Part shown: piece after piece, positions 2,777 through 49,493 of the stretch
Numbering within the stretch: the stretch's first letter is position 1
Layout of the letters: each line of letters opens with the position of its first letter
Origin: Candidatus Hopanoidivoransaceae bacterium
Lineage (GTDB): Bacteria; Actinomycetota; Acidimicrobiia; Acidimicrobiales; Hopanoidiivorantaceae
Assembly (NCBI GenBank): GCA_965204495.1
Contig: OZ241989.1
Location: 1,504,312-1,568,311, forward strand
DNA: 64,000 bases
Reading direction: 5' to 3'
The notes under the pieces: generated by a model
What the model was told of the DNA's origin: nothing
Database searches by the model: none
The model's input: only the letters and a program-made list of their open reading frames with translations
Program-made: the position numbers and the translations under genes

Positions 2777-2878
2777 GCTATTGCACGGCGGGCAACGGCG
2801 CATCTTTTTATGCTCAGACACGCAAGCGAACTCGCCTAAAAAGACACGCCGTCCCCCGCCTTACCCTGGAACTCGCAG
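2777..2878 (+). repeat. dispersed intergenic MITE/REP-like repeat, full copy
   Basis: Core is GGGCAACGGCGCATCTTTTT-(~30 nt)-AAAAAGACACGCCGTCCCCC, i.e. imperfect ~20 nt inverted termini. Near-identical copies occur at 14372-14455 (inverted) and 28602-28683. Confidence 0.8.
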
Positions 2879-2950
2879 CAGTTTTGCCTTGGAATTCGTA
2901 AGAGTCTTACCCTTGGAACTAGAAGCCGCCCTGCCGTGGAAAATAGATAA

Positions 2951-3667
2951 TTGAGCGAGTCTCTCTTTCTGCTGGCTGCGGCTATTATTCTTGTCGGGGC
3001 GACTATTCAGGGGGTGGCGGGGTTCGGCATGAATGTGCTGGGGGCGCCACTGCTGTTTTTGATTGAACCTTCGCTGGTGCCGGGGTCTATCATTCTGGCG
3101 GCTCTGCTGCATACTGTGCTTTCGGCTTGGCGGGAGCGGGGGGAGATCAACTTTCGGATGGTGTCTTGGATGTTCGCCGGCACGATACCTGGCATTATCG
3201 CAGGGGCTTTGGCGCTCAGGGTTTTGACCGAAAACGGGTCGGCTCTGCTGATCGCCATCGTGATCCTCTCGGCTGTGACGATCATGACTTTCGGGCTGGT
3301 GCCGCCGTTCAACCGAGGCACAACGGCAGCTACAGGGCTGGTGGCCGGATTTTCGGGTTCTACATCTGCAGTCTCGGGGCCGGTGGTGGCTTTGTTCTTG
3401 TCGCAGATGCCGGGGCCGCAGCTGCGCAGCACTATGGCAGCTTATTTTCTGATTTCAGGATCTATCTCTTTGGTGACGCTTTCCCTGGTGGGCGAGTTCG
3501 GCGCGCAGCAGTTCGCCAGAGGCTTGCTGCTCTGGCCGCCCGTAGGCATAGGGTTTTTGCTGTCTTCGCCTCTGCGGAAATACTTGGATCGCGGCTATGT
3601 GCGCCCCGCCATCCTGACGATTTCGTCTTGCGCGGCAATCTCGCTGCTAGTGCGAGCCTTGGTCTAG
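2951..3667 (+). CDS. TSUP (TauE/SafE) family membrane transporter
   Basis: 238 aa polytopic membrane protein. The N-terminus GATIQGVAGFGMNVLGAPLL and a repeated half are typical of TauE/SafE. The start is TTG and is uncertain. Confidence 0.7.
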   Translation: MSESLFLLAAAIILVGATIQGVAGFGMNVLGAPLLFLIEPSLVPGSIILAALLHTVLSAWRERGEINFRMVSWMFAGTIPGIIAGALALRVLTENGSALLIAIVILSAVTIMTFGLVPPFNRGTTAATGLVAGFSGSTSAVSGPVVALFLSQMPGPQLRSTMAAYFLISGSISLVTLSLVGEFGAQQFARGLLLWPPVGIGFLLSSPLRKYLDRGYVRPAILTISSCAAISLLVRALV

Positions 3668-3764
3668 AGAGAAAAAGACAGGATCAAGACAACAGGATCA
3701 AGACATTGGAATTTTGACTAGAAATCTGACAGCAGGTTTGCGAGCTTTACGATACAATGGCTTC

Positions 3765-4001
3765 ATGGGCAAGAAAAGAAAGATATTCATTCTGTCAGCC
3801 TTGGCTGCTGGCATAGCCATCTTCTTCGGGCGCAAGCGCATGCGCTCCAAGGCAGATGATGCCGCCAGCGAAGGCGACTGGACACCCGACGAAGACGCTG
3901 CTGAAGACACCGCTCCCAGCGACAGTTCTGCCAGCGCAGACGCCGAGGGCAGTGCCGCAGAAGAAGATTCTGAAGAGGATTCTGAAGAGACAGGTGGCTG
4001 A
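3765..4001 (+). CDS. small hypothetical protein: one TM helix plus an acidic tail
   Basis: MGKKRKIFILSALAAGIAIFFGRKR is followed by a D/E/S/A-rich tail. The start is placed at the internal ATG. No homolog recognised. Confidence 0.4.
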   Translation: MGKKRKIFILSALAAGIAIFFGRKRMRSKADDAASEGDWTPDEDAAEDTAPSDSSASADAEGSAAEEDSEEDSEETGG

Positions 4002-4110
4002 TAGGAAGGCTGGCTGAAGGCGGCTAACAGCTAGCCAGAACTAACAGCTAGCCAGCAGTTCTAACTGTTCTATTCAGTAGTTCTATTCAGCATCTCTAGC
4101 CGGCAGGTAT

Positions 4111-5700
4111 CTAGCCGGCAGGTTCAGCTTTGGGCGGCAGGTTGATAGCTCGCACCTGTCTGACAGCAGCCAGATTTCGCAGCTTTTCCACAGTTTCGCT
4201 GTCGGCTGGCTTGTCGGTGGCCAGCAGGATCAACGCTTCGTTATCTTCGGCGACAGCGCCCACATCCATGTCTGAGATATTGATGCCCATCTCGCCCATG
4301 ACCTGGCCGATGGCCCCGATGACGCCGGGCTTGTCGTCGTTGCGTATGACCACCATGTGATCCGAGGGGGGCTGATCCACTCGGTGGCCTTCCAGCCAGA
4401 TGATGCGAGGCTCCGCTCGCACGCCCAGCAAAGCCCCGCCCACTCCGTGCCCGCCGCCTCGCAAAGTCACCTCGCTCACATAGTCTTTCGGGGCGGAGGT
4501 GTTGATGGCCCGAACTTCCAGCCCTCGGCTGCGGGCGATCTCTTCGGCATTCACATAGGAAACAGGGTCGTCGCAGACAGGGCTGAGCAAGCCGGTGAGC
4601 ATCGCCAGCATCCCCATCTTGGTGTCCACTTCGCCGATGAGTCCGCTGAATTCTATTTCCACCGTGTCGGGAAGGTTGCGAACGAGCGAACCGAAGATGC
4701 CGCCCAGAGTCTCGCACAGGGGCAGATACGGCAGAAGCTCTTCGGGGGTCTGGGCGGCGTGGATGTTCACGGCGAAGCGGGGCAGCTTGCCGGCCAGCAT
4801 GTTCCCGACTTGGGTAGCCACCGACACGCCCGCCTTCTCCTGCGCTTCCTTGGTGCTGGCTCCCAGATGCGGAGTCACGACCACACCCGGCAAGCCCAGC
4901 AGAGGCGAGCCTGCGGGCGGTTCCTCGTCGAACACATCTAGGGCCGCTCCAGCAACAACGCCGGCTTTGATGGCCTCGGCCAAGTCGGCCTCGTTGATGA
5001 TGCCCCCGCGCGATACATTCACTATCCGCAGCGTCGGCTTGGCTTTAGCTAGAAGCTCGGCGTTGACCATGCCAGTGGTCTCAGGGGTCTTGGCCACATG
5101 CAAGGTGATGAAATCCGCCTCTGCGAAAATCTCTTCTAAAGTCTTCGGCTCGGCACCCAGCTGGCGGAATCGGTCAAAAGATATATAAGGGTCGTAGGCG
5201 ACTATTCGCATGTGAAACGCCGCTGCTCGTTCGGCGATTAGCTGGCCGATCTGCCCGAAGCCCACGATGCCCAGAGTTTTCTCGGAAAGCTCTACGCCTT
5301 GGAACTGCGATCGGTTCCAGCCTCCGCCCACCAGATCGGCATGAGCTTGAGGAATGTGTCGGGCTTGGGAGAGAATCAGCCCCAAAGTGTGCTCGGCTGC
5401 GGAAATGGCATTGGCCCTGGGAGCATTCACCACCACGACGCCCCTAGCGGTGGCAGCTTCGGTGTCTACATTGTCCACTCCGATGCCGGCGCGTGCGATG
5501 ATCTTGAGCTGCTCGGCCGCAGCCAGCACTTCTTCTGTGACCTGAGTCTGCGAACGCACGATGAGCGCATCGCAGTCGGCCACGGCTTCCAGCAGCTCGG
5601 CAGGTTCAAGACCAAGCCGCACATCCACCAGATGCCCGGCCTCGCGCAGCTGCTCCAAGCCCGGCTCGGCGATTTTTTCGGCTACCAGAACTTTTGCCAT
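4111..5700 (-). CDS. serA: D-3-phosphoglycerate dehydrogenase with C-terminal ACT domain
   Basis: Has the NAD-binding motif GIVGFGQIGQLIA, 2-hydroxyacid dehydrogenase core motifs, and a long C-terminal ASB/ACT region. The start is set at MAKVLVAEK (ATG 5700) rather than the ORF-track start. Confidence 0.9.
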   Translation of the reverse strand: MAKVLVAEKIAEPGLEQLREAGHLVDVRLGLEPAELLEAVADCDALIVRSQTQVTEEVLAAAEQLKIIARAGIGVDNVDTEAATARGVVVVNAPRANAISAAEHTLGLILSQARHIPQAHADLVGGGWNRSQFQGVELSEKTLGIVGFGQIGQLIAERAAAFHMRIVAYDPYISFDRFRQLGAEPKTLEEIFAEADFITLHVAKTPETTGMVNAELLAKAKPTLRIVNVSRGGIINEADLAEAIKAGVVAGAALDVFDEEPPAGSPLLGLPGVVVTPHLGASTKEAQEKAGVSVATQVGNMLAGKLPRFAVNIHAAQTPEELLPYLPLCETLGGIFGSLVRNLPDTVEIEFSGLIGEVDTKMGMLAMLTGLLSPVCDDPVSYVNAEEIARSRGLEVRAINTSAPKDYVSEVTLRGGGHGVGGALLGVRAEPRIIWLEGHRVDQPPSDHMVVIRNDDKPGVIGAIGQVMGEMGINISDMDVGAVAEDNEALILLATDKPADSETVEKLRNLAAVRQVRAINLPPKAEPAG

Positions 5701-5746
5701 GACTTCTACTGTAGATATTTTTCGCAAGTAAGGCTAGCCCGATTTC
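5681..5746. repeat. direct repeat copy A (serA start/promoter block)
   Basis: gctaccagaacttttgccat...tgtagatatttttcgca...ggctagc..gattt recurs at 8635-8700 at roughly 80% identity. Confidence 0.85.
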
Positions 5747-8654
5747 AGGTGATGCCTGCGTGGCAGCTGTTTATGCTGGCGTCTGTGCCTATTGTGTTTT
5801 CCAAGGCAGAGGGTATTTCTGCTTGGCGGTTTCCTTTGAGGCAGACGATGCCTGCGGAAGAGCGGCAGAATGCTACGGATTTGTCGGCTTCCGTGATGCT
5901 GTCTGCTGTGCTGTGGCGGAGAGGGGCGAATCCGAGCATCGAGCAGATCATGTTCTGCCTGTCCAATGCCGGTGCTGAGGTCTGCGGGCGGGCGGAGATC
6001 GCTATGGAGACTCGCCCTCTGAGAGCGTGCCCGCCTGAGGATGTGTAGGGGATGGTGAAGGCGGCCGTGCCGGCGGCGTCTCCTGCGGTGATTTTGTAGC
6101 TGCAGCCTGTGTTGGTGATGCGGGTGATTTTGGCATCGCGGTCGGCGGCGTTCGCGCAGGTTATGTCGTAGGCGCCGTCTGTGGCGTAGCTGGCAGCGTT
6201 TATGGTCATAGTGCCGCCAGCGGTCATAGACAGATCGCTGGGCGCGGTGAAGACGATTGTGGAAGCAGCGCCTATTTCTATGCTTATGACGCCGTTTTGG
6301 GTGTGTCCGCCTGAAGAGGTGTAAGGCACGGTGAAAGTCGCTGTGCCTGTGGCGCCGGTGGGCGTGACGGAGAAATCGCAGATTTTGGGATTCGGGCGCG
6401 CAACGGTTATCTTGCTGTCCACGCTGATGGCGTTGCCGCAGGTGATGTAGTAGTTGCCGTCTGAGGCGTAGTCGCTGGCATTCAAAGCGAGGGTGCGGTT
6501 GGTTCCCAGTTTGAGTCCTGTGGGCGCGGTGTAGGAGATGGTGGAAGCCGGGCCTATTTCTATGGTGAAGACTCCGCTTGTGGAGCCGCCGCCGGCGGAG
6601 GTGTAGGGCAAGGTGAAGCTGGCAATGCCTTGAGCGCCTGTAGGCGTGACGGTGAAGACGCAATTCCTCCGGCTGAGGCTGATCTTGGAATCCACATCTG
6701 TAGTAGTTCTGCAGGAGATTCTGTAGCCGCCGTCGGACGCGTAATCCCGACCATTGATCGTGAGAGTCCGGTTCGTGGCCAGCTGAAATTCGTCGGGCTC
6801 AGAGAAGACGAGAACAGAAGGCGGCGGAGGGCTGATTCGGATGGAAATCATGCCGCCTGTGGTGTATCCGCCTGAGGAAATATAAGGAACTCTGAAGGCG
6901 GCAATGCCGACCGAGGAACCCGCTCGGATCGTATAGCTGCAGCCTTTGCGCGTTACGGTGATTTTGCTGTCTATGCGGCGGGTGTCAAGACAGAAGAGAG
7001 CGAGGTCGCTGTCTGCCAGCGTTGCGTACGAAGAGGCGTCTATGGTGATGCTTCGGTTTGGTGCTACAGCTAGGGCTATAGGAGGGGTAAAATTGATGGC
7101 GCCATTGATGTTGTCCGTCAGCTTGGCTCCTATAGCAATATTGACAGATGCTGTGGCCCCGCCGGAGGAGGAGTAGCCGACTGCGAGGTTCAAGTCTCTT
7201 GACGAGTAGCTGGGACCGGATTGAAATTTAATGATGCACCCGTTGCGACTGACTTTTAGGGTAAAAGCAGCTGCAGCTCCTGAAAATCTGTGGCTTGTGC
7301 ATGTGATGTCGTAGTCGCCGTCTGTGGCATAGCGGGCGGCGTCTATAGTTATGACTCGGTCTCTTCGGATCAGAAATTGAGGATTGCTGGCCAAGGTGAT
7401 GCTGGAGGCGGTGCCGATGGTTAGGGAGACCACGCCGCTGTGAGTGTCGCCGCCGGAGGAGGTGTAGGGCACGGTGAAAGTGGCGATGCCAGCAGTGCCG
7501 CCTGCGGTTATTGAGACAGAGCAGCCGGCGTCGTTGATGCTGTCGATGGGAGCATGGGATCGGATGTTGGCGATGAGAGCATGGGATTGTCTGATGGTTC
7601 CGCACGAAATAGTATCGCTGCCGTCTGAAGCATAATCGGCAGCATTGATCCGTATAGTGCTGTAGATGCCCACAGACAGACCCGCAGGCGCGGTATAGAC
7701 GATGTGGGAGGCAACTATTGTGATGTCTATCCTGTCCGTGCGAGCGCTGCCGCTTGCAGAAGTGTAGGGCACGCTGAAGCTGGCTCTGCCTGTGGTGTTG
7801 CCTGCGGTTATGTTATAGACGCAGCCGTTGCGGGAGCTGACGGTGATCTTGGAATCCACAGCAGTCGCATCGCCGCAGAACACAGGATAGCCGCCTTGAT
7901 CGTAGGCGTAGCTGCCCGCGTCAATCGTGATAGTGCCGCCCGTGCGCACTCTGAGATTGGATACGCGCTGATAGAAAAGGACGGACGAAGGGCCGATAAT
8001 GAGAGGAATGACGCCTGTCTGCTCGTCTCCGCCAGAGGAGTGGTAGCGCACCGTCACTGTGGCCGCGCCTTGAGTAGAGCCGGCCCACACCCTGAAGCTG
8101 CAGCCAGTTGCGGTTACCGAGGCGAGGAGTCGGTGCCGGTTAGCCGGGTTGGCATTGAAGCTGCATGTTATGGCATAGTCGCCGTCTGTGGCATAGCCGG
8201 AGACATCAATTATTTTAGATCTGCCTGTACCTATGGGTATGCTCGCTGGAGCGGTGAAAGTGATATCGGAAGCAGCGGTGATAGCTATCGTGAAGGTCGC
8301 GCTGTGAGTGTCGCCGCCAGAAGAAGTCAAAAGGGTGGTGAAGGTGGCATTGCCCGTCGGGGCAGTGGCTGAGGCATTGACGGTGAAAAAGCAGCTGTTG
8401 GCGGCATTTTGGGCAACGGTGATCCTGGTGGAATCCACAGCAGTGGGAGCTCCGCAAGTGAAAGTGTTGGAGCCGTCTCTGGCAAAGCCTGCAGCGTAAA
8501 TGATGTAGCCTGTTCGCCCTGCTGGAATCGTGAGGTTGGTAGGGGCGGTGAAAACGATGTTGGAAGTCTGCGCTGATGCTTGGTCGGCAAATGAGGCGGA
8601 TGCCGTAAATAGCACCGATCCGAACAAAGCCAGAGCTACCAGAACTTTTGGCAT
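5745..8654 (-). CDS. secreted protein with ~9 tandem Ig-like/adhesin-type repeats (~95 aa each)
   Basis: Signal peptide MPKVLVALALFGSVLFTASASFA. It is followed by a reiterated unit: TFTAP..L....G.T.TI.A..YA.DG.Y.ITCG....VDSKITV.....C.F.VT..GA.G.A.FTVPYTSSGG.T..GVISI.IG. The last ~85 aa are non-repeat. Confidence 0.75.
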   Translation of the reverse strand: MPKVLVALALFGSVLFTASASFADQASAQTSNIVFTAPTNLTIPAGRTGYIIYAAGFARDGSNTFTCGAPTAVDSTRITVAQNAANSCFFTVNASATAPTGNATFTTLLTSSGGDTHSATFTIAITAASDITFTAPASIPIGTGRSKIIDVSGYATDGDYAITCSFNANPANRHRLLASVTATGCSFRVWAGSTQGAATVTVRYHSSGGDEQTGVIPLIIGPSSVLFYQRVSNLRVRTGGTITIDAGSYAYDQGGYPVFCGDATAVDSKITVSSRNGCVYNITAGNTTGRASFSVPYTSASGSARTDRIDITIVASHIVYTAPAGLSVGIYSTIRINAADYASDGSDTISCGTIRQSHALIANIRSHAPIDSINDAGCSVSITAGGTAGIATFTVPYTSSGGDTHSGVVSLTIGTASSITLASNPQFLIRRDRVITIDAARYATDGDYDITCTSHRFSGAAAAFTLKVSRNGCIIKFQSGPSYSSRDLNLAVGYSSSGGATASVNIAIGAKLTDNINGAINFTPPIALAVAPNRSITIDASSYATLADSDLALFCLDTRRIDSKITVTRKGCSYTIRAGSSVGIAAFRVPYISSGGYTTGGMISIRISPPPPSVLVFSEPDEFQLATNRTLTINGRDYASDGGYRISCRTTTDVDSKISLSRRNCVFTVTPTGAQGIASFTLPYTSAGGGSTSGVFTIEIGPASTISYTAPTGLKLGTNRTLALNASDYASDGNYYITCGNAISVDSKITVARPNPKICDFSVTPTGATGTATFTVPYTSSGGHTQNGVISIEIGAASTIVFTAPSDLSMTAGGTMTINAASYATDGAYDITCANAADRDAKITRITNTGCSYKITAGDAAGTAAFTIPYTSSGGHALRGRVSIAISARPQTSAPALDRQNMICSMLGFAPLRHSTADSITEADKSVAFCRSSAGIVCLKGNRQAEIPSALENTIGTDASINSCHAGIT
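6000..8560 (-). repeat. tandem coding repeats (~285 nt period) inside the Ig-like repeat gene
   Basis: The peptide unit recurs about nine times in the 5745-8654 translation. Confidence 0.8.
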
Positions 8655-8700
8655 CGCTTCCTATTGTAGATATTTTTCGCAGATATGGCTAGCATGATTT
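8635..8700. repeat. direct repeat copy B (start region of repeat-protein gene and amidohydrolase gene)
   Basis: Partner of 5681-5746. It contains the start codons of both divergent genes (MPKVLVA on the minus strand, ATGGCTAGCATG on the plus strand). Confidence 0.85.
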
Positions 8701-9905: not shown

Positions 9906-9975
9906 CAGCAGGCGGCCGCAGCCGGTAAGTTTCACTGCCTCTTTTGAGGCTTTGCTGAGAGAGCTGCGAAGCTTC

Positions 9976-10086
9976 ATGGGATTTGACCCGACTCGCCAGC
10001 ACAGTCGGTCATACCTCGACTACTGGCTGGTCGCTTTGGCACTGCTGCTGATTGCCGGTCTTGTGCTTTGGGCTGTTTTAGGATAG
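9976..10086 (+). CDS. possible 36-aa single-TM peptide upstream of sdhC
   Basis: MGFDPTRQHSRSYLDYWLVALALLLIAGLVLWAVLG. Support is only ORF shape and hydrophobicity. Confidence 0.25.
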   Translation: MGFDPTRQHSRSYLDYWLVALALLLIAGLVLWAVLG

Positions 10087-10182
10087 TTGCTGATGGCATC
10101 TGCATCCACCGAGCAGGCCGCCCCGAGAGCAGCACAGCGGGCGACTTCGCCTAGAGCGACACTGCCGCCGACCTCGGCTGAG

Positions 10183-10983: not shown

Positions 10984-12902
<1,919 letters not shown>

Positions 12903-13709: not shown

Positions 13710-13729
13710 TTTTTTGGTTTTTTCTTTTA

Positions 13730-13916
13730 GGGTTTTTGCTATTGCACGGCGGGCAACGGCGCATCTTGGAACTAGCAGGTTTTTGCTAACTCAACGGCGG
13801 GCAACGGCGCATCTTTTTTGCCTCCGCATTACCCTTTTGCCGTATAGGTTTTTGCGCTAAACCATTGAAGTCGTGCAAAAAAGACGCACCGTCCCCCGCC
13901 TTGCCTTGGAGCTAGC
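13730..13916. repeat. composite copy of the dispersed MITE/REP-like repeat
   Basis: Contains two GGGCAACGGCGCATCTT half-sites and the AAAAAGACGCACCGTCCCCCGCC end, in the sdhB-SCP2 spacer. Confidence 0.75.
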
Positions 13917-13948
13917 AAGAAGATGTTTACCTTGGAGCTAGATGGAGG

Positions 13949-14347: not shown

Positions 14348-14371
14348 GTGAATGCGGCCCTTCTCTACTTC

Positions 14372-14455
14372 GGGTAGCAGGGGGACGGCGTGTCTTTTTA
14401 GGCGAGTTCGCTTGCGTGTCTGAGCATAAAAAGATGCGCCGTTGCCCTGCGGTTG
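14372..14455 (-). repeat. dispersed MITE/REP-like repeat, full copy, inverted orientation
   Basis: Its reverse complement is nearly identical to 2790-2865 and 28602-28683. It sits between convergent genes. Confidence 0.8.
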
Positions 14456-14466
14456 ATGCCCCCGCA

Positions 14467-16179
14467 TTAGATCAAATAGCTGTATTTGTCTCTGAAGTTG
14501 TGTAGGGCTTGGACTAGCAGATCGTCGGCGCCTTCGGTTTCTACTACTCGGTCGCAGAGGGCTAGGAGCTTGGCGGATTCTTCCATGTCTAGGAAGGGGG
14601 CCACTTTTGTGCGGATCATTATGATGTCGGCGGCCAGATAGGGGGGAAGTTCGGGGTGGGGGTCGGTCGCCGACTTTTCCAGAGACTCGTCATGGACGGT
14701 GGTTTTGGCGTTGTCGGAAGTTTCAACCAGTTTGCGCTTTTCTTGGTGATCGTCTTCGGGCACTCGTGCGGCCAGCAGGGATGTCTGGTTTAGCGGGTCG
14801 GAGACATCCACATGCATGATGCCGTCGGTGTCGTAGCGGTAGGTGATGTCGAAAAGGCACTGGCTCATGGGCTTGGGGCTGGTGATGGGCACTCGCCAGT
14901 GCTGCAGCTCCACGCTGCCGAGGTCGTCGGGCGGTTTCGTGGGGTCGCCTTCCATGACGGCAAGGTTCAGCCACTCTTGATGATCCACCACAGGGGAGAA
15001 ACGCTCGGTGCCTCTGGCCGGCAAGCCTTGGTTGCGTGGGATGATGGTGGAGAAGTGCGGCTTGGCTTCCAAGTGCGAAACCGCCAGCACGCCCAAGGCA
15101 TGTTGAGTGGTGACTTGGAAGTTGTAGTCGGACATCTCGCCCTGCAGGATTGCCGAGGCGACAGCTGCGCCTTCGGCCGTTGCGGTCATCGGGTTGGAAA
15201 CCGGGCTGATCGGCAGCTGGGCGACTTCTGCGATGAAGCTCTGCACTGCGGGTATCTGGGATGTGCCCCCCACCAGCACGAGCGAATCTATCTGCAAAAG
15301 CATGTCGGCTTCGGCCACATCTGCGAGACATCGCTCCACAGGCTCTCGCGCCCGCTGCAGCAGCGGCCGGATCAGATCTTCAAACTTCAAGCGAGAAAGA
15401 CGGACGGACTCGCCGCGTGGAAGCCTTATGGAGACTTCCTGTTCGGTGCTGAGCAAGATTTTGGCTCGCTCGGCTTCTAGGCGGAGGAAGCCTTTTTCGG
15501 CTTGCGAATAGTTTCTGATCTCTTCCAAGGTGTCGCTCAACCATCCCATTATGGCCGTGTCGAAGTCCACGCCGCCCAATGTGGAGACGCCTGCCGAGGT
15601 GCGTTCCACGAAGCGGTTGTTGCGGGTTTCCAGCACGGTCACATCCAGCGTGCCGCCGCCCCAGTCCACCACCATGACGGTTTCGGTCTGGCCTTTGGTG
15701 GCTGCCATGGCTGCCGCTGTGGGTTCGTTGATGAGGGCGAGGACTTTGATATTGGCCATGCCGGCGCAGGTTTTCGTGCGCTTGCGAGCGTTGCCTCGGC
15801 TGTTGGCGGGGATTGTGACCACCGACTTGTCAAAGTGCACTCCCGATTCCAAGGCTGCGGATTTGCGAAGCTGTGCGAACAGGTAAGTGCTGATCTCGTT
15901 GAGGGTGAAGCTTTCATTGCCGACCATAGCGTGCTCTTCGGCGAAGAAGAAGCGCTTGATGGCTTCTATCTTCTGCCTCGGCGGTAGCAGTTTGGCTTCC
16001 CAGCCGAAGAGAGGCTTGTTCTGGTCGTCAAGGCCGAACACGGAAGGGAACAGCAGGTCGTGGCCCAGCTCGCCCCATTCCATAGGCGGCTCGCCGATGC
16101 GGACGGTGTTGATCTCGCCGTTCTCAAAGACGGAGACCACGCAGTTGGTGGTGCCGAAGTCTATGCCTATGGCTGCCAT
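14467..16179 (-). CDS. non-canonical Hsp70 family protein (short C-terminus)
   Basis: MAAIGIDFGTTNCVV and other actin-fold ATPase motifs (DWGGGTLDV, LVGGTSQIP), followed by a beta substrate-binding-like domain. It is 570 aa, shorter than DnaK. Confidence 0.85.
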   Translation of the reverse strand: MAAIGIDFGTTNCVVSVFENGEINTVRIGEPPMEWGELGHDLLFPSVFGLDDQNKPLFGWEAKLLPPRQKIEAIKRFFFAEEHAMVGNESFTLNEISTYLFAQLRKSAALESGVHFDKSVVTIPANSRGNARKRTKTCAGMANIKVLALINEPTAAAMAATKGQTETVMVVDWGGGTLDVTVLETRNNRFVERTSAGVSTLGGVDFDTAIMGWLSDTLEEIRNYSQAEKGFLRLEAERAKILLSTEQEVSIRLPRGESVRLSRLKFEDLIRPLLQRAREPVERCLADVAEADMLLQIDSLVLVGGTSQIPAVQSFIAEVAQLPISPVSNPMTATAEGAAVASAILQGEMSDYNFQVTTQHALGVLAVSHLEAKPHFSTIIPRNQGLPARGTERFSPVVDHQEWLNLAVMEGDPTKPPDDLGSVELQHWRVPITSPKPMSQCLFDITYRYDTDGIMHVDVSDPLNQTSLLAARVPEDDHQEKRKLVETSDNAKTTVHDESLEKSATDPHPELPPYLAADIIMIRTKVAPFLDMEESAKLLALCDRVVETEGADDLLVQALHNFRDKYSYLI

Positions 16180-17125: not shown

Positions 17126-17216
17126 CTTCGGTCAGTTCCAAGCAAGGAGGTTAGTTGGTTCCAAGGAATAGCAAAAACTCTTTAAACATCAGACCCAACA
17201 AAGTCATTCCGCCAAA

Positions 17217-18224: not shown

Positions 18225-18358
18225 TTAGCTTTCCTTTGGCATTGCGGATGACATTATGGAAGTTCTGCTGTGCTGCTATTGGGTTGTTTTGGCTTCTGCT
18301 GTGCTGCTATTGGGCTGAGTTGCTATTGGGTTGTGCCAAACCACAAGCTGCTGCGAGG

Positions 18359-21690: not shown

Positions 21691-21700
21691 GTCTTCCAGT

Positions 21701-22615: not shown

Positions 22616-22658
22616 TGCTTTCTCCTGTCGGCACAGATTGACTTTTCCAGCTTAGAAG

Positions 22659-22696
22659 ATGGCTGGTTGCTGTTTCTTGAGTTCCAAGGTGAGGCG
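22659..22696. repeat. 38-bp direct repeat, left copy
   Basis: atggctggttgctgtttcttgagttccaaggtgaggcg matches 23523-23560 at 35/38 positions. Confidence 0.85.
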
Positions 22697-22781
22697 AGTC
22701 AGGCACGAGTTCCAAGATGAGACGGGAATAACAAAAACTTAACGGCTGTAGGCAGACGGAGCGAATTCCTGAAGTGGCAAT

Positions 22782-23468: not shown

Positions 23469-23522
23469 ATTCCTAGTTTATTCAGTTCGCTTGTTCTAGC
23501 TACGAGACATTTGTTTGGGAAA

Positions 23523-23710
23523 ATGGCTGAGTGCTGTTTCTTGAGTTCCAAGATGAGGCGGGGAGAGGCGTTGCGAGTTCCCATGTGAGGCGGGGACGAT
23601 GTGTCTGGTTGAACGCAAAGCCCAAGAAGCAAAAGGGTAAGGTTCAGCAAAAAAGATGCACCGTTGCCCTGCGGTTGAAGTTGTTTACTAGAAGATGCGC
23701 CGTTATCCGC
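23523..23710. repeat. right 38-bp direct repeat plus degenerate MITE/REP-like copy
   Basis: Contains the partner of 22659-22696, followed by GAGTTCC..GAGGCGGGGACG and AAAAAGATGCACCGTTGCCC half-sites. Confidence 0.7.
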
Positions 23711-23743
23711 AAACATCCAACTGCAGTAATAGGCTGAATACCC

Positions 23744-26008
23744 ATGAAGCGACTATCCCCCCGTAACTTCTTAGCTTTTTGCCTGTTGACGCTAATAGCC
23801 CTGCTAGCCGCAAGCTGCTCTAGCAGTTCCGACAGATCAAGCACAGACAGATCCCCCGTCTTCGCCGAAGCCGCAACACCCGACAATCCAGCCACTGCTG
23901 TAGCTGCCGGAGTGGGGCTTTCTTGCGCGCTTCGCGAAGGCGGTGCCATTTCCTGCTGGGGCTTCAACGGGGACGGCCGGTCAGGCGATGGATCTGATGA
24001 GGGTTCTTTGGTGCCTGTGGGTGTTGTGGGTATTGATGATGCTACTGCTATAGCTGCCGGCGTGACGCATTTTTGTGCGCTTCGCCAGGGTGGGGCTATT
24101 TCCTGCTGGGGCTCCAACTGGGCTGGCGAACTGGGCGATGGATCTGATGAGGGTTCTTTGGTGCCTGTGGGTGTTGTGGGTATTGATGATGCTGCTGCTA
24201 TCTCTGCTGGCGGGAGGCATTCTTGCGCGCTTCGCGAAGGCGGGGCTATTTCCTGCTGGGGCGACAACTGGGGTGGCCAGTTAGGCGATGGATCTGATGA
24301 GGGTTCTTTGGTGCCTGTGGGTGTTGTGGGTATTGATGATGCTGCTGCTATCTCTGCTGGCGGGAGGCATTCTTGCGCGCTTCGCGAAGGCGGTACTATT
24401 TCCTGCTGGGGCTTCAACGGGAACGGCCAGTTAGGCGATGGATCTTATGACGCCCTTTCTTTGGTGCCTGTGGGGGTTGTGGGTATTGATGATGCTACTG
24501 CTATCTCTGCCGGCGGGGGGCATTCTTGCGCGCTTCGCGAAGGCGGTACTATTTCCTGTTGGGGCTTCAATGGGGGCAGCCAGTCCGTCAGGGGCGGCCG
24601 GTTAGGGTTAGGCGATGGATCTGATGAGGGTTCTTTGGTGCCTGTGGGTGTTGTGGGAATCACTGACGCCATAGCCATCACCGCAGGCGCCTTTCATTCT
24701 TGCGCGCTTCGCGAAGGCGGTGCTATTTCCTGCTGGGGCGACAACCAATACGGCCAGTTGGGTGACGGATCTTATGACGCCCTTTCTTTGGTGCCTGTGG
24801 TGGTTGTGGGTATTGATGATGCTACTGCTATCTCTGCCGGCGGGGGGCATTCTTGCGCGCTTCGCCGAGGCGGTGTTATTTCCTGCTGGGGAGACAACGA
24901 GCTCGGCCTGTCAGGCGACGGATCCGATGAGGGTTCTCTAATATCTGTGGAGGTTGTGGGCGTTGCTGATGCCATTGCTGTCGATGCAGGTGATATTCAT
25001 TCTTGCGCGCTTTACCAGGGCGGCGTTATTTCCTGCTGGGGCAACAATGAATACGGCCAGTTAGGCAATGGAACTGGTAAGGGTTCTTTCGTGCCTGTGG
25101 AGGTTGTGGGTATCGATGATGCCATTGCTGTCGATGCAGGTGATATTCATTCTTGCGCGCTCCACCAAGAAGGCACTATTTCCTGCTGGGGCGACAACCA
25201 ATACGGCCAGTTAGGAGATGGATCCGATAATGACTTTTCTTTGGTGCCTGTGGGGGTTGTGGGTATCACTGATGCCACAGCAATTACTGCAGGCTGGAGG
25301 CGTTCTTGCGCGCTTCGCCAGGGCGGTGTTATTTCCTGCTGGGGCATCAACAGTAGGCTAGGTATTGGACTTGATGAGCGTTCTTTGGTGCCTGTGGGGG
25401 TTGCGGGTATCGATGATGCCATTGCTGTCGATGCAGGTGATGGGCATTCTTGCGCGCTTCGCCAGGGCGGTGTTATTTCCTGTTGGGGCTCCAACTGGGA
25501 TGGTGAGCTGGGCGATGGATCTGATGAGGGTTCTTTGGTGCCTGTGGGGGTTGTGGGTATCGATGATGCTACTGCTATAGCTGCAGGTGATGGGCATTCT
25601 TGCGCGCTTCGCCAAGGCGGTGCTATTTCCTGCTGGGGCTTAAACGGAAACGGCCAGTTAGGCGATGGATCTGATGAGGGTTCTTTGGTGCCTGTGGGGG
25701 TTGTGGGTATTGATGATGCTACTGCTATTGCTGCTGGTTGGGGGCATTCTTGTGCACTTCGCCAAGGCGGTGCTATTTCCTGCTGGGGCGACAACGATCT
25801 CGGCCGGTCAGGCGACGGATCCGGTGAGGGTTCTTTGGTGCCTGTGGGGGTTGTGGGTATTGATGATGCTACTGCTATTGCTGCTGGTGATGGGCATTCT
25901 TGTGCGCTTCGTCGAGGCGGTGTTATTTCCTGCTGGGGCGACAACGAATACGGTCAGCTAGGCGGCGGCGTTCGTCTGCCGCGATTTGTTGTCGGCTTCG
26001 GGGGCTGA
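23744..26008 (+). CDS. RCC1-repeat (beta-propeller) protein with signal peptide / probable lipoprotein
   Basis: N-terminus LTLIALLAASCSSSSD, then 14 units of GGAISCWG.N..GQLGDGSDEGSLVPVGVVGIDDATAIAAG..HSCALR. Confidence 0.85.
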   Translation: MKRLSPRNFLAFCLLTLIALLAASCSSSSDRSSTDRSPVFAEAATPDNPATAVAAGVGLSCALREGGAISCWGFNGDGRSGDGSDEGSLVPVGVVGIDDATAIAAGVTHFCALRQGGAISCWGSNWAGELGDGSDEGSLVPVGVVGIDDAAAISAGGRHSCALREGGAISCWGDNWGGQLGDGSDEGSLVPVGVVGIDDAAAISAGGRHSCALREGGTISCWGFNGNGQLGDGSYDALSLVPVGVVGIDDATAISAGGGHSCALREGGTISCWGFNGGSQSVRGGRLGLGDGSDEGSLVPVGVVGITDAIAITAGAFHSCALREGGAISCWGDNQYGQLGDGSYDALSLVPVVVVGIDDATAISAGGGHSCALRRGGVISCWGDNELGLSGDGSDEGSLISVEVVGVADAIAVDAGDIHSCALYQGGVISCWGNNEYGQLGNGTGKGSFVPVEVVGIDDAIAVDAGDIHSCALHQEGTISCWGDNQYGQLGDGSDNDFSLVPVGVVGITDATAITAGWRRSCALRQGGVISCWGINSRLGIGLDERSLVPVGVAGIDDAIAVDAGDGHSCALRQGGVISCWGSNWDGELGDGSDEGSLVPVGVVGIDDATAIAAGDGHSCALRQGGAISCWGLNGNGQLGDGSDEGSLVPVGVVGIDDATAIAAGWGHSCALRQGGAISCWGDNDLGRSGDGSGEGSLVPVGVVGIDDATAIAAGDGHSCALRRGGVISCWGDNEYGQLGGGVRLPRFVVGFGG
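23924..25979 (+). repeat. 14 tandem RCC1 coding repeats (~153-165 nt) with long stretches of near-identical DNA
   Basis: Strings such as ggatctgatgagggttctttggtgcctgtggg.gttgtgggtat.gatgatgc recur throughout. Confidence 0.85.
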
Positions 26009-26129
26009 TTTTGTCTGGGTTTCTCTGTCACAGCTTTGAGGCCTGTTTCCCCGTATTGGCAATCACTTTATCCTGCGACGGTTGAAACCTCTAAGATAGT
26101 GCAGGCACAAAATATGAAAGGCAAGCACT

Positions 26130-26990
26130 ATGGCTAAGAGATTTTCAGGGCGCAATGCGGTCGTCACGGGGGCTAGTCGTGGCATCGGGGCGGCGATTGC
26201 CGAGCGGCTGGCGGCGGACGGGGCTAATGTGGCTATCGCAGCTCGCACATTAGACGAGCATCCGGTGCTGCCCGGCAGCCTCAACGAAACGCTCGCCAAG
26301 CTGAACTCTTACGGCGGCACGCACGCGAGCATCGTGGCCGACATGGGCGACCCGGAGTCTCGCGAAGGTCTGATTGTCAAAGCCAAGGAACACCTCGGCG
26401 GCCCCATAGACATCCTCGTGAACAACGCGGCGGCAGCTATCTACATGCCCTTAGCCGAGTATCCGCTGCGCCGTGTGCGCCTGATGATGGAGATAAACCT
26501 GCTCGCCCCGATCGACCTCACCCAGCAAGCCCTGCCCGACATGATTGAAGCAGACGAAGCCTGGGTGGTGAACCTCTCCAGCGCGACTGCCAACTACGAA
26601 CCGGGCCCGCCGTATCGCCAGAGCGAGCTGCTGGAGGTGATGGGCATCTACGGCGCATCCAAAGCAGCCCTCAACCGCATGACCAACGCCTTCTCGGTGG
26701 AGACCCACAAGCACTCCATACGCATGAACACGATAGAACCCAGAGCTGCGGTTCTGAGCGAAGGGGCGGACATCAAGGTGGGCGAAATGCTCTCGTCAGA
26801 ACAGATTGAATCCATGGAGGCAATGGTTGAAGCTGCCGTGTTCCTCTGCGATTGCGAACCGGATTTCACCGGCAGAGTATGCTCCAGCTTGGATTTGATT
26901 GAAGAGCAGAACCTGATGGTGATGACTCTGGGCGGGGACGAGCCGTATCCCGGAGGCATCAGACCGATAGGCAGCCCGCTGCTGGATTGA
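26130..26990 (+). CDS. SDR family oxidoreductase
   Basis: VTGASRGIGAAIA, NNAA, YGASKAALN. Confidence 0.85.
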   Translation: MAKRFSGRNAVVTGASRGIGAAIAERLAADGANVAIAARTLDEHPVLPGSLNETLAKLNSYGGTHASIVADMGDPESREGLIVKAKEHLGGPIDILVNNAAAAIYMPLAEYPLRRVRLMMEINLLAPIDLTQQALPDMIEADEAWVVNLSSATANYEPGPPYRQSELLEVMGIYGASKAALNRMTNAFSVETHKHSIRMNTIEPRAAVLSEGADIKVGEMLSSEQIESMEAMVEAAVFLCDCEPDFTGRVCSSLDLIEEQNLMVMTLGGDEPYPGGIRPIGSPLLD

Positions 26991-27847
26991 GCGAAGCTGT
27001 GGCAGAAGAAAGCTCAACAGTTCTCTTTGATGTGAGCGACCGAGTGGCGACCATCACTTTGAACCGCCCCGAAGTGCTGAACGCCTTCAGCGCACCGATG
27101 GGCCAAGAGCTATCCGCTGCCCTGCGCCGATGCGACAAAGAAGAGGAAATCAGAGCGGTGGTGATAACAGGAGCAGGCAGGGCGTTTTGCTCCGGGGCGG
27201 ATTTTTCACAGGGTGCCAAAGTCTTTGACGCTCCGACAGATCGGGGAAGCTTCAAGTCCGACCCGTTTGATTTCCACCCTTGGGATGTGCGAAAGCCCGT
27301 GATAGCAGCCATCAACGGCCACGCTGTAGGTCTGGGCTTCACCATGACGCTTCAGTGCGACATCCGTCTAATCGCCAAAGATGCCAAGTGCGGGGTGGTT
27401 CAAGCGAGGAGAGGAGTGATGCCAGACTTGCGATCTCATTGGACGCTGCCGAGAACTGTCGGTTTCGCCAAAGCTGCCGAGCTGCTGCTGACAGGCAAAA
27501 TGTTCAGCGGCCAAGACGCAGCCGACTGGGGACTGGCGAGCCAAGCTTTGCCAGCCGAAGAAGTTCTGCCCGCAGCTCAAGAAATGGCCAAAGACATTGC
27601 CGTCAACACCGCTCCCGTATCGGTGGGTCTGATCAAGAGACTGCTCTGGAGCGACCCTGCCCTCACAGGCGAAGAGGCCAACTATTTGGAACAGCAGCTT
27701 CACCTCCATGTGATGGGCGCCCCCGACGCGAAGGAAGGACCGACAGCTTGGGCGGAGCGACGCGATCCGCAATGGCAGATGACCATAACAGCCGACTGGC
27801 CAGACTGGCCTGCGGCAGACAACGGGAAATCAAGCGAAGAGGAGTGA
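26987..27847 (+). CDS. enoyl-CoA hydratase/isomerase (crotonase) family
   Basis: ITLNRPEVLNAF, GAGRAFCSGADF. The TTG start overlaps the upstream stop. Confidence 0.85.
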   Translation: MSEAVAEESSTVLFDVSDRVATITLNRPEVLNAFSAPMGQELSAALRRCDKEEEIRAVVITGAGRAFCSGADFSQGAKVFDAPTDRGSFKSDPFDFHPWDVRKPVIAAINGHAVGLGFTMTLQCDIRLIAKDAKCGVVQARRGVMPDLRSHWTLPRTVGFAKAAELLLTGKMFSGQDAADWGLASQALPAEEVLPAAQEMAKDIAVNTAPVSVGLIKRLLWSDPALTGEEANYLEQQLHLHVMGAPDAKEGPTAWAERRDPQWQMTITADWPDWPAADNGKSSEEE

Positions 27848-27851
27848 AGCG

Positions 27852-28580
27852 ATGCGAGCTCTAGTGGTCGGCTTTGGAGAAGTGGCCGAGCAGCTGCGGT
27901 CGGGGTTGTCGGATAGAGGCTGGGATGTGGCGGCAGTTTCTGGAGGCGGTTCTGAATCTGGCGCATCTAATACTGGTTTCGCTTCAGACAAATCTGGCTC
28001 TGACCCTGTGGCATCAAGAAGTGTGGAAGTATCTAACGGCACAGCATCAAAAAGCGCAGCATCCCAAGCTGGGCTCGACATGCTCGTCTTCGTTTGCCCG
28101 TGTCCGCAAGAGCCGAAAAGCTGTGTGGATATGAGCGAGGAGATGTGGACGCAAGGCTGCGAACAGCCAATAGCGGAATCCCTGACTTGTCTTGCTCAGC
28201 ATCGCGATGCACTCTTGGCGACCGGGGGCCATGTGGTATTCGTGGTGCCGAGCTTCGCTATGTCGGGGGCCAAAGGCTTTTCCGCCGTAGCCGCAGCAGG
28301 CGAAGGTTTGCGAACCCTAGCCAAAGGTGCAGCCAAGCAATGGGGAAAAGACAATGTGCGGGTGAACACCGTTGCGCTAGACCCGCAGCATTTCGTACCT
28401 GGCGAAGCGGGCAAACAGCTCTCGGCAGTGATGGGTCTGGCAACCTCATCCGGTTTCGGACACAAAGGCGACATCGCCACCGACATCGCCTCCGCTCTGG
28501 ATTGGCTGACCGCAGAAGATGCCCACTTCATCACCGGCACTACCCTTGTTCTAGATGGCGGCATTTGGATGGCTGGGTGA
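27852..28580 (+). CDS. atypical SDR-like oxidoreductase
   Basis: The C-terminal half is SDR-like (NTVALDP, FITGTTLVLDGG). The N-terminal glycine motif is degenerate, and there is a low-complexity insert. Confidence 0.55.
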   Translation: MRALVVGFGEVAEQLRSGLSDRGWDVAAVSGGGSESGASNTGFASDKSGSDPVASRSVEVSNGTASKSAASQAGLDMLVFVCPCPQEPKSCVDMSEEMWTQGCEQPIAESLTCLAQHRDALLATGGHVVFVVPSFAMSGAKGFSAVAAAGEGLRTLAKGAAKQWGKDNVRVNTVALDPQHFVPGEAGKQLSAVMGLATSSGFGHKGDIATDIASALDWLTAEDAHFITGTTLVLDGGIWMAG

Positions 28581-28601
28581 TGCGGACAATATATCTTTGT
28601 T

Positions 28602-28683
28602 CAACCGCAGGGCAACGGCGCATCTTTTTTATGCTCAGACAAGAAAACTCGCCTAAAAAAGACACGCCGTCCCCCTGCTACCC
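28602..28683 (+). repeat. dispersed MITE/REP-like repeat, full copy
   Basis: caaccgcagggcaacggcgcatcttttttatgctcagac...cgcctaaaaaagacacgccgtccccctgctaccc. Confidence 0.8.
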
Positions 28684-28718
28684 TTCATCAGAAGTCTGAA
28701 AGAAAGTCAGAGAGCATT

Positions 28719-29489
28719 GTGAGCGACAAAAATCTCTTAGAAAACACCTCAGCCGTTGTCACTGGCGCGGGGGCGGGTGTCGGCAAGGGCATTGCGGATG
28801 CTCTTGCATCGGAAGGGGCGCATGTGGTTGTTGCTGCTCGTCGTGCGGAGAACGGGGAACCCGCAGCCGAGGAGATACGAGCGGCAGGCGGGAGCGCCCA
28901 GTTCGTCCGCTGCGATGTGGCTTCACGAGACGACATCTTCGCAGCCGTGGAAGCGGCAGTGGAGGCGACAGGCCGATTGGACTGTCTTGTCCATAACGCC
29001 CTAGGTGATGTCGGGCCGCCGAGCGCGGTTCAGGAAATCCCTGAGCAGATATGGGAGAACATGCGCACCACTGCCCTGCGAGCTTCTTTTGACTGCGCCC
29101 AAGCCGCCTATCCCCATCTGCTAAAAACGCAGGGTAGCTGCATTTTCTTGTCGTCTTCGGCGGGAGTGGAAGGCAGCGCGCACCTTCCTCTTTATGGGGC
29201 AGTCAAGGCAGCCCAGCGTGGCTTTGCCAAGAGCTTGGCTCTGGAATGGGGAGGCGAAGGCATCCGCGTCAATCTCATCAACCCCGTGGCGTTCACCCCC
29301 GCAATGGAGAGGGCTTACGCGGCCAACCCCGCCCTAGAACAGGCCTTGGCAGACACAACCCCTCTAGGCAGAGTAGGCGACCCCGCAAGCGACATCGGCC
29401 CGGCAGCAGTGTTCTTGGCGAGCGAAATGTCGCGCTACATCACCGGCCAGACGATCACCGTAGACGGCGGAGCCTTCATGGGGCTTTAG
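28719..29489 (+). CDS. SDR family oxidoreductase (FabG-like)
   Basis: VTGAGAGVGKGIA, YGAVKAAQ, ITGQTITVDGG. GTG start. Confidence 0.85.
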   Translation: MSDKNLLENTSAVVTGAGAGVGKGIADALASEGAHVVVAARRAENGEPAAEEIRAAGGSAQFVRCDVASRDDIFAAVEAAVEATGRLDCLVHNALGDVGPPSAVQEIPEQIWENMRTTALRASFDCAQAAYPHLLKTQGSCIFLSSSAGVEGSAHLPLYGAVKAAQRGFAKSLALEWGGEGIRVNLINPVAFTPAMERAYAANPALEQALADTTPLGRVGDPASDIGPAAVFLASEMSRYITGQTITVDGGAFMGL

Positions 29490-29965
29490 CCAGACATCTC
29501 CCGAATAGCTTCTAGGCACTCCGTTGCATGCTCGGAGAGGTCGTGTTCGCCGGCGTCTAGGTCGAAAGTTTTGCGGATGACGCCTTCAGGGTCTATCAAA
29601 TAGGTAATGCGGCGGGGGATGCCGTATTCATGCATCGGCATGTCGGGTGTGCGCTCGGCTTGATACAGCTTTCCGACCGATTTATCGGTGTCTGCTATGA
29701 GCTTGTAGGGGAAAGACTCTGCTTCGGCGAAAGTCTTTTGGTCGTCTACGGTGTCGAATGATGCCCCTACGATGACGGTGTTTGCGTCTGTGATTTCTTG
29801 GGCTCTATCACGGAGCCCTTGACCTTCAACCGTTCAACCAGGGGTTGAAGCCTTCGGATACCACCAGAAGATGATCCAACTGCCACGCAGTCCCTCCAGC
29901 GATACTGTCTCGCCGTCTTGGTCGGAGCATGAAAACCCCGGTGCCGATGTGCCGACTTCAAGCAT
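29486..29965 (-). CDS. bcp: Bcp-type peroxiredoxin with in-frame TGA at the peroxidatic Cys position (putative selenocysteine)
   Basis: ATG 29965 is preceded by AAGGAG. The 159-codon frame is open except for TGA at 29834-29836. WWYPKASTPG[TGA]TVEGQGLRDR parallels E. coli Bcp YFYPKAMTPGCTVQACGLRDN. It is not in the ORF track. Confidence 0.7.
29800..29836 (-). promoter_or_regulatory. candidate bacterial SECIS: UGA plus hairpin GGGCUC-CGUGAUA-GAGCCC
   Basis: A 6-bp G/C stem with a 7-nt loop begins 15 nt after the UGA on the coding strand. Confidence 0.5.
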
Positions 29966-30055
29966 GTTTTTCTCCTTTTGTTATCTCCCCGCGTGCGTCG
30001 CGGCTCACTTGCTATTGTAATGAGTCTGCAACAGGTTTCAAGGCAAAGCTTGGTG

Positions 30056-30240
30056 ATTCCAAGGTAAGGCGGGGGGCGGTGTGTCTTTTTTTGGCGTGTC
30101 TGGTTTAGCGAAAAAGCTTTCTTAGCAAAAGGGTAAGGTTCAGCCAAAAAAAGATGCGCCGTTGCCCGCCGTGCAATAGCAAGAACTATCAAAGAAAAGC
30201 CAAAAAGACACGCCCCCGCCGTGCAATAGCAAAAACCATC
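30056..30240. repeat. composite copy of the dispersed MITE/REP-like repeat
   Basis: ttccaaggtaaggcggggggcggtgtgtcttttt ... aaaaagatgcgccgttgcccgccgtgcaatagca ... aaaaagacacgcccccgccgtgcaatagcaaaaacc. Confidence 0.75.
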
Positions 30241-49491: not shown

Positions 49492-49493
49492 AA

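Follow-up and report, generated by a model that had tools for sequence, protein, structure and literature searches.

A lineage-restricted family of non-coding palindromic mosaic repeats in an Acidimicrobiia genome

Extragenic palindromic repeats and the domesticated transposases associated with them have, to our knowledge, been studied almost entirely in Proteobacteria. [quoted passage not shown] The REPs of E. coli require a stem mismatch and a 5′ GTAG, and the enzyme binds one strand only (PMC3479197). In REPINs, the hairpins whose arms are themselves REP palindromes, excision is reported to leave part of the conserved element behind (Bertels and Rainey 2011, PMC3116915). Among MITEs (miniature transposable elements with inverted repeats), the Correia (NEMIS) elements of Neisseria and the ERIC (IRU) elements of enterobacteria carry terminal inverted repeats and short fixed TA duplications. 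Both change the fate of mRNAs (PMC10969869). Here we describe a repeat family in a 64,000-nt window, the whole stretch of DNA analysed, from Candidatus Hopanoidivoransaceae bacterium (Actinomycetota; Acidimicrobiia), which covers positions 1,504,312 to 1,568,311 of contig OZ241989.1 in assembly GCA_965204495.1. The elements are dispersed, lineage-restricted, non-coding palindromic mosaic repeats that are gained, remodelled and cleanly lost. They constitute a new sequence family of an already familiar kind (REP/BIME/REPIN and MITE), and not a new kind of system.

Repeat finding and nhmmer profiles built on the aligned copies (alignments A3 and A4) identified six hairpin-bearing copies, here c1 to c6, and the window also has two hairpin-less relics, all of them intergenic and all within 2.7–30.3 kb of the window; the profile search found no copy at 30.3–64 kb. 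The profile loci are 2,761–2,881, 13,724–13,767 (partial) with 13,773–13,923, 14,360–14,473, 23,537–23,711, 28,582–28,702, and 30,047–30,195 with 30,203–30,244 (partial). A first-pass annotation, made from the letters alone, had proposed a dispersed repeat at these places with every copy intergenic, and both statements are confirmed. Exact matches to a 68-nt core occur only at 2,790–2,857 (plus strand) and 14,380–14,447 (minus strand), with a chance expectation of 0. Arm A (GGGCAACGGCGCATCTTTTT) has 7 matches in the window at up to three mismatches against 0.01 expected, and arm B (GGGGGACGGCGTGTCTTTTT) has 5 against 0.03, while CCTTGGAACT units and the GTTTTTGCTAWT motif each have 16 (3.8 and 5.0 expected, respectively). 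The near-identity of three copies reported at first pass is also real: c1 and c3 agree at 68 of 68 core positions, and c5 differs from them only by two substitutions and small indels in the loop and the A/T run. The elements have no coding capacity, and their neighbours in the window are ordinary metabolic genes (thiolase-like, TauE, sdhB, SCP2-like, Hsp70-family, RCC1-repeat, short-chain dehydrogenase/reductase (SDR) and M17 aminopeptidase genes).

The family extends beyond the window, with copies in at least six related assemblies (L094/L102, L096, L097, L100, L101 and L103). In all of these except L100 the elements were found at orthologous spacers, at DNA identities of 86–99.7%. L100 is an unlinked locus, reached by using a translated element as a protein query that returned seven proteins and recovered spurious open reading frames (ORFs); it comprises an unrelated groEL–glnA region on a related 1.62-Mb contig, and its 21 kb include five loci with seven copies between them. 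These seven copies make the family a dispersed one, and the possibility that the similarity reflects nothing but a local duplication, which the first-pass annotation had raised against itself, falls away. At about one locus per 5–8 kb, extrapolation suggests a few hundred copies per 2–2.6-Mb genome, with none in the right half of the window. In a sister clade (L095 and L104, about 85–88% identical in DNA), two loci totalling 43 kb contained no intact copy. L095 has one related relic, upstream of the orthologous amidohydrolase gene in the spacer that holds the relic at 22,676–22,738 in the window, and c6 is absent from its orthologous spacer. L104 carries a 68-nt repeat of its own (1,511–1,578 and 2,650–2,717; copies 93% identical) that is unrelated to the family and holds a small hairpin, GAAGGCTGGCAAG...CTGCCAGCC..CTTC.

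Database searches returned no true match outside these relatives. A 20-nt arm query gave one chance match and no true match in JGI metagenomes and no match in IMG/VR, blastn of the elements gave no match in plasmid and phage collections, and a 17-nt pattern scan of genome contigs gave chance matches only, with the second arm in 0 of 93 loci. A comparison with Rfam, proposed at first pass, was equally negative: Rfam 15 had 0 matches at the gathering score over the whole window and none on the elements at E ≤ 1 over positions 1–31,000. The closest named sdhA relatives of the host (76–79% identity) are Candidatus Poriferisocius and Actinomarinicola, and a 100%-identical sdhA is present in one ENA contig of 2.58 Mb.

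Each complete unit centres on a long imperfect hairpin. In the aligned copies, the pair of 20-nt arms and three further pairs form a stem of 23 base pairs (bp) with one fixed mismatch; arms A and B are complementary at 16 of 20 positions, as counted at first pass, and the arms (20–23 nt each) are not self-palindromic. The three further pairs are GCA/TGC in units with type I flanks and GGC/GCC in those with type II flanks, a fully compensatory difference. Two kinds of loop occur, a short one of 24–30 nt (ATGCTCAGA[CACG]CAAG..AACTCGCCT) and a long one of 56–59 nt with an invariant TTACCCTTTTGC inside. Type I flanks read TTCAACC...TACCCG. Type II flanks have the T-rich GGCTTTTCTTTGATAGTTNTTGCTATTGCAC on the arm-A side and, on the arm-B side, GCCTTACCTTGGAACT followed by one to three CCTTGGAAYT units at a spacing of 23–28 nt. 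All four combinations of loop and flank were found, a two-loop by two-flank modularity that, like the strand asymmetry and the orientation bias described below, goes beyond the first-pass annotation. Conserved sequence continues for 12–30 nt past arm A and at least 16 nt past arm B, and these extensions are not mutually inverted. Units also form tandem and inverted clusters. Two loci that had been described as composites (13,730–13,916 and 30,056–30,240) do exist, but each consists of a truncated unit beside a complete long-loop unit and is not a distinct larger element.

The pairing of the stem differs between the two strands. Across 15 distinct stems, all 330 of 330 stem cells are standard pairs on the strand that reads arm B first (the GGGGG-first strand, which reads GGGGGACGGCGTGTC first), and compensatory double changes occur at four stem pairs; the observed values were reached by 0 of 500 shuffles. 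On the A-first strand, 53 of the same 330 cells are A·C mismatches, spread over eight different positions, and 0 are G·U. The positions that depart from Watson–Crick pairing are wobble-compatible (G·U or G·T) on one strand only (8 versus 0; sign test, about 0.008). Stem changes on the B-first strand include both C-to-T and A-to-G, and one stem position shows the complete route from A-U through G·U to G-C. Folding energies for RNA and for DNA both favour the B-first strand, by 5–14 kcal/mol, and either strand gives a very stable RNA fold (−33 to −50 kcal/mol, with z from −4 to −7). A G·G mismatch (C·C on the other strand) occupies stem position 7 in each of the 15 distinct stems. At its 5′ foot the folding strand reads GGGTAGCAGGGGG, which contains GTAG, in type I units and GGTAAGGCGGGG or GGTGAGGCGGGG, that is, GTAA or GTGA, in type II units. 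Because standard pairs hold throughout, changes are compensatory, wobble is one-sided and the energy models point the same way, pairing on the B-first strand appears to be under selection. Mutation bias was considered as a source of the wobble asymmetry and rejected, because C-to-T and A-to-G changes on the template strand run opposite to the known transcription-associated bias.

Comparison of the window with L103 and L102, which are about 96% identical to it in DNA, revealed how the elements turn over between close relatives. A 214-nt block that contains c1 (2,737–2,950, plus strand) is absent from L103, in which the thiolase stop codon overlaps the TauE start codon, and the 21 nt that precede the block recur in degenerate form (14/21) at its right end. 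A hairpin module of 78 nt (GCACGGC...GCCTCA) is present in L103 at the exact point between window positions 17,166 and 17,167 and is absent from the window and from L102. The flanks of this indel are 100% identical, and it is seamless, with no duplication and no microhomology. Since the L103 module carries about five private substitutions, it has the look of an old copy, and a precise loss seems to account for the state of the window. At c2, L103 has a single short-loop unit where the window, L101 and L102 have a truncated unit and a long-loop unit, and the added unit in L102 is bracketed by an exact 15-nt repeat, CTTGGAACTAGCAGG. In L097, the c5 spacer holds a long-loop unit in the opposite orientation instead of the short-loop c5. 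Units persist for long periods at orthologous sites, yet they are occasionally inserted, remodelled or cleanly lost.

These polymorphisms bear on whether the elements are classical MITEs, that is, deletion derivatives of an insertion sequence of the DDE type in which the 20–23-bp arms would be the terminal inverted repeats and movement would be as double-stranded DNA. A parent insertion sequence, with ends matching GGGCAACGGCGCATC, would then be expected elsewhere in the genome. Small, non-coding, intergenic elements with imperfect inverted termini and many dispersed copies are what such an origin would produce, and the degenerate direct repeat around the whole c1 block and the exact 15-nt direct repeat around the second c2 unit of L102 could be read in the same way. 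However, conservation is asymmetric and runs 12–30 nt past the inverted arms, so the arms are not terminal. No short target-site duplication of constant length was seen at any copy, no common direct repeat flanks the copies, and the cleanest indel is seamless. Wobble confined to one strand would be unexpected if the inverted repeats were recognized in double-stranded form, and neither the scanned ORFs of the window nor the gene tables for the fetched loci revealed an insertion sequence. Because the inverted arms are internal, short target duplications are missing and wobble is one-sided, a DDE-type MITE seems less likely on the sequence pattern, and we consider it an unlikely account of the family. 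The MITE/REP-like label given at first pass is essentially right: dispersal, insertion, loss, remodelling and selected stem pairing all stand. A classical MITE with short target-site duplications is not supported. The same distinction separates the family from the Correia/NEMIS and ERIC/IRU elements. These are comparable as non-coding intergenic repeats of 100–200 nt with inverted ends, and also in their RNA folding when co-transcribed, their orientation-dependent effects on mRNA and their insertion/absence polymorphisms between strains; by contrast with their terminal inverted repeats and TA duplications, the arms here are internal, no short duplication is present, one indel is seamless and wobble is restricted to one strand.

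The orientation of the elements relative to genes, which the first-pass annotation had suggested checking, proved to be biased. In seven of eight independent co-directional spacers (c1, c2, the site at 17,166, the relic at 22,680, c5, c6 and L100 10,063/10,204), the neighbouring genes have the A-first strand as their sense strand; the exception is the replacement unit in L097. Both elements between a convergent gene pair in L100 (17,048 and 17,334) are likewise A-first relative to their own genes. The bias rests on small numbers (one-sided p of about 0.01–0.04). As the A-first strand is usually the sense strand, the strand that folds preferentially is usually the template strand and thus antisense to the neighbours. 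Replication strand was rejected as the cause, because elements of both orientations are present in a 30-kb stretch over which the sign of the GC skew is constant. We conjecture that the bias arises from purifying selection against the stronger hairpin in mRNAs. A different explanation, in our judgement quite improbable, is that a single-strand-specific system undescribed in Actinomycetota (perhaps an HUH enzyme, whether a divergent relative of RAYTs or another kind, or else a nuclease or recombinase with structure specificity) excises the 78-nt module and re-inserts it seamlessly into the defined landing motif GCTATT^CCTTGG, with strand choice coupled to transcription and not to replication. 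Such coupling would account for a folding strand that nearly always coincides with the template strand.

Orientation bias relative to transcription might also be expected of an RNA element selected by the host, such as a 3′-end stabilizer, an RNase III or RNase E processing site, a non-canonical terminator or an insulator, with its spread being secondary. Several other features fit this idea, including the very stable RNA folds on both strands, the positions at the 3′ ends of genes and within pairs of co-directional genes, and the combination of compensatory changes with G·U tolerance that is typical of RNA structures; Correia and ERIC elements provide a precedent for altering mRNA fate (PMC10969869). 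Yet the wobble-tolerant strand is usually antisense, and a host RNA role is disfavoured because the hairpin present in sense transcripts is the mismatched one, with its A·C mismatches. Copies also lie in divergent promoter regions (c4, and L100 8,417 and 8,529), they are gained and lost between near-identical genomes with the neighbouring genes unchanged, and no Rfam family matches them. Nor do the hairpins resemble terminators. On neither strand does a U-tract come after the hairpin: the T/A runs are located within the stem beside the loop, and the sequence after the hairpin is GCCTTACC or TGCTACCC on one strand and GCCGTGCAATAGC or TGCGGTTGA on the other. Consensus scans found no terminator or promoter in c1, c2 and c3 and no terminator in c5. 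They gave three weak terminator-like matches in c6, of which two fall in the partial unit and one in the 3′ extension, and one weak promoter-like match (9 of 12) that overlaps arm A of c5. Taken together, these points make a host-selected RNA element hard to favour, and we hold it to be doubtful at best.

Specific roles in expression were likewise set aside. An intrinsic terminator, one of the functions offered at first pass, was rejected given the lack of a U-tract, the empty scans of c1–c3 and c5 and the weakness of the c6 matches, and a sigma-70 promoter was rejected given the lack of promoter sites in the scans beyond the weak 9-of-12 match in c5; a host function as terminator or promoter is not indicated. 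On inspection, CCTTGGAACT has neither a consistent −10 element nor a constant distance to start codons, which argues against an ECF-type or sigma-54-type promoter or a ribosome-binding site. An integron attC site was also considered. The type I flank GTTCAAC fits RYYYAAC, but there is no GTTRRRY at the other end, the elements have syntenic housekeeping genes beside them and an integrase is absent.

The CCTTGGAACT units invite one more interpretation, in which they and the symmetric arms would be read as double-stranded DNA by a nucleoid-associated or regulatory protein. E. coli BIMEs bind integration host factor (IHF) and gyrase. Here, CCTTGGAACT units stand in tandem at 23–28-nt spacing upstream of start codons whether or not a hairpin is present, and the sister clade retains one such pair upstream of its orthologous amidohydrolase gene. 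Set against this, the distance from unit to start codon varies from 8 to about 90 nt and the neighbouring genes have no common function. Recognition of the double strand would, moreover, leave the compensatory changes and the strand-specific wobble unexplained, and we regard protein binding sites as a very improbable basis for the family.

Considering all of the evidence, the repeats are probably extragenic, non-coding palindromic mosaics that form a family specific to this lineage and belong to the REP/BIME/REPIN and MITE class, in which the unit acted on is the hairpin on one strand. This hairpin, folded on the strand that reads GGGGGACGGCGTGTC first, most likely forms in single-stranded DNA and would most likely be recognized by a trans-acting HUH/Y1 enzyme (RAYT or IS200/IS605-like), hypothetically encoded elsewhere in the genome. 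Copies that place the strongly folding strand in neighbouring mRNAs would probably be selected against, which may leave the orientation bias. Functional membership with REP/BIME/REPIN elements is suggested by six features that match those of REPs with their Y1 transposases (PMC3479197) and of REPINs (PMC3116915): an imperfect hairpin specific to one strand, a stem mismatch that is fixed, a foot resembling GTAG, seamless loss of less than the whole conserved element, tandem and inverted clusters, and vertical persistence.

The likeness to REP/BIME systems lies in the extragenic imperfect palindromes with a conserved stem mismatch and strand-specific structure, both of which are found here by sequence pattern, and in the 5′ foot of one strand, where a tetranucleotide resembles GTAG. 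The two also share a mosaic of hairpins and short conserved linker motifs, clustering in tandem and inverted arrangements, and largely vertical persistence in a narrow lineage. With REPINs (Bertels and Rainey 2011, PMC3116915), the family has in common a total length of about 70–110 nt in one long hairpin, compensatory changes, tandem clusters, populations of near-identical copies and clean excisions that do not span the whole conserved element. The subterminal palindromes of IS200/IS605 elements are similar in being single-strand-specific mismatched hairpins with adjacent conserved sequence, and in insertion and excision that leave no target-site duplication; unlike the single long hairpin here, which has no associated gene, they are about 20–30 nt long and form a left/right pair that brackets tnpA/tnpB.

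Several points weigh against assignment to the REP/BIME/REPIN class. The host belongs to Acidimicrobiia (Actinomycetota) and is not a proteobacterium, and the window ORFs that were scanned and the Pfam-annotated gene tables for the fetched loci contained no RAYT (Y1/HUH, PF01797), IS200/IS605 or other transposase gene. Classical REPs are smaller than the element: its 23-bp stem is about twice as long, its loops span 24–59 nt and the unit comes to 68–100 nt. Its arms are not self-complementary, unlike the two REPs of a REPIN, and one defining feature of REPINs is therefore lacking. Type II flanks have GTAA or GTGA and not GTAG, and the junctions of the 78-nt indel, between T and G and between A and C, differ from CT, where TnpA-REP of E. 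coli cleaves. Long direct repeats (about 21 nt with 14/21 identity, and 15 nt) flank the other two polymorphisms; they match neither transposition by HUH enzymes nor typical DDE transposition, and unequal recombination could be their source instead. The clean hairpin loss could be a palindrome-stimulated deletion rather than an excision. Moreover, the genome-wide copy number is extrapolated, and selection accounts post hoc for a folding strand that is usually antisense to the neighbours.

The individual copies illustrate the mosaic construction. In c1, a 5′ extension at about 2,747–2,782 that ends in GTTGTTGCTATT precedes the hairpin module (2,783–2,863), the arms of which (2,790–2,809 and 2,838–2,857) enclose a short loop. 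Three CCTTGGAAYT units follow at 2,864–2,873, 2,887–2,896 and 2,911–2,920, and the degenerate 21-nt copy of the left flank lies at about 2,928–2,950. The c2 locus, also on the plus strand, opens with a truncated unit (c2a, 13,724–13,782) composed of the 5′ extension and arm A (13,751–13,767); the loop and arm B are missing, and arm A is fused straight to CTTGGAACTAGCAGG through the microhomology CTT. Next to it is a complete long-loop unit (c2b, 13,783–13,939), with arms at 13,799–13,818 and 13,878–13,897 around a 59-nt loop and two subsequent CCTTGGAGCT units at 13,904–13,913 and 13,930–13,939. Copy c3 (14,360–14,473; minus strand in the A-first reading) has a short loop, type I flanks (TCAACCGCA...TGCTACCCG) and a hairpin at 14,377–14,450, and is located between convergent SCP2-like and Hsp70-family genes. 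Copy c5 (28,582–28,702, plus strand) also has a short loop and type I flanks, with its hairpin at 28,607–28,678 between two co-directional SDR genes.

The fragments noticed at first pass (17,134–17,180 and 22,680–22,730, the latter extending to 22,738) are real relics that have kept the outer motifs GTTTTTGCTATT and CCTTGGAAC and lost the hairpin. At 17,134–17,178 (minus strand), the relic or empty site consists of GTTTTTGCTATT joined directly to CCTTGGAACC, with the 78-nt module of L103 placed exactly at this join, and then a second CTTGGAACT unit. The other, at 22,676–22,738 (minus strand), reads GTTTTTGTTATT, then CCCGTCTCA, which represents the last bases of arm B, and then two CTTGGAACT units; as the last nine bases of arm B are kept after deletion of the hairpin, internal deletions also occur.

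Copy c4 (23,537–23,711, minus strand) is a degenerate long-loop copy with a partial arm A (23,689–23,708) in a divergent intergenic region, and it adjoins the edge of an indel that carries an RCC1-repeat gene. This gene (23,744–26,008) encodes a 754-aa RCC1-repeat protein with about 14 tandem 150-nt repeats and represents a variable, eukaryote-like repeat protein locus. Both the gene and c4 are missing from the 96%-identical L094, in which a DUF6036 gene is nearby. Copy c6 (30,047–30,244, minus strand) comprises a complete long-loop unit, with arms at 30,071–30,090 and 30,148–30,167, and an upstream partial unit (30,203–30,244), and lies between the M17 aminopeptidase stop codon and a peroxiredoxin-like gene. 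The latter (29,486–29,965, minus strand; 159 codons; peroxiredoxin/BCP-like) has an in-frame TGA (29,834–29,836) at the position of the catalytic cysteine (WYPKASTPG[TGA]TVEG). This TGA is conserved in L094, L095 and L096, where a 51-aa ORF is called, and in L097, where 43- and 94-aa AhpC-TSA fragments are called; a hairpin follows it, and the gene is a candidate selenocysteine peroxiredoxin.

Other features of the region were recorded alongside the repeats. A low-G+C island (44,247–50,083; 39–48% compared with about 59% elsewhere) is bracketed by 49-nt inverted repeats that are 82% complementary (44,247–44,295 and 50,035–50,083); it encodes LytR_C, DUF1828, DUF6978 and several proteins without a Pfam match, and was probably acquired horizontally. 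A 969-aa protein with internal repeats of about 280–290 nt and no Pfam match is encoded at 5,745–8,654 (minus strand) and is conserved in L101, L102 and L103. Between the malate dehydrogenase and isocitrate/isopropylmalate dehydrogenase genes, a short tandem repeat of TTCTGCTGTGCTGCTATTGGG-like units (18,263–18,338) breaks the alignments to L101, L102, L103 and L094 alike, so its length is variable. Adjacent DUF433 and DUF5615 genes (51,886–52,678) have an arrangement typical of a toxin–antitoxin module, and a DUF5615 gene is also present in L104. A large Type ISP restriction–modification gene (about 1,550 aa) occupies L097 17,667–21,500 and L103 20,206–21,932 where the window has other genes, which marks another variable spot in an otherwise syntenic region.

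The repeats also have practical consequences, as they appear to break short-read assemblies and lead gene callers to extend ORFs through copies. A short-read contig, L098, ends inside an element copy (5,900–5,942), which suggests such a break, and ORFs called through copies include P0121–P0127 and a 305-aa SDR call in L097. Beyond this, the window documents a well-defined family in an uncultured Acidimicrobiia lineage, outside the usual proteobacterial setting. With presence and absence alleles at about 96% DNA identity, a seamless hairpin indel and a clean one-strand wobble, it is a convenient test case for the handling of repeats as single-stranded DNA and for repeat orientation that tracks transcription.

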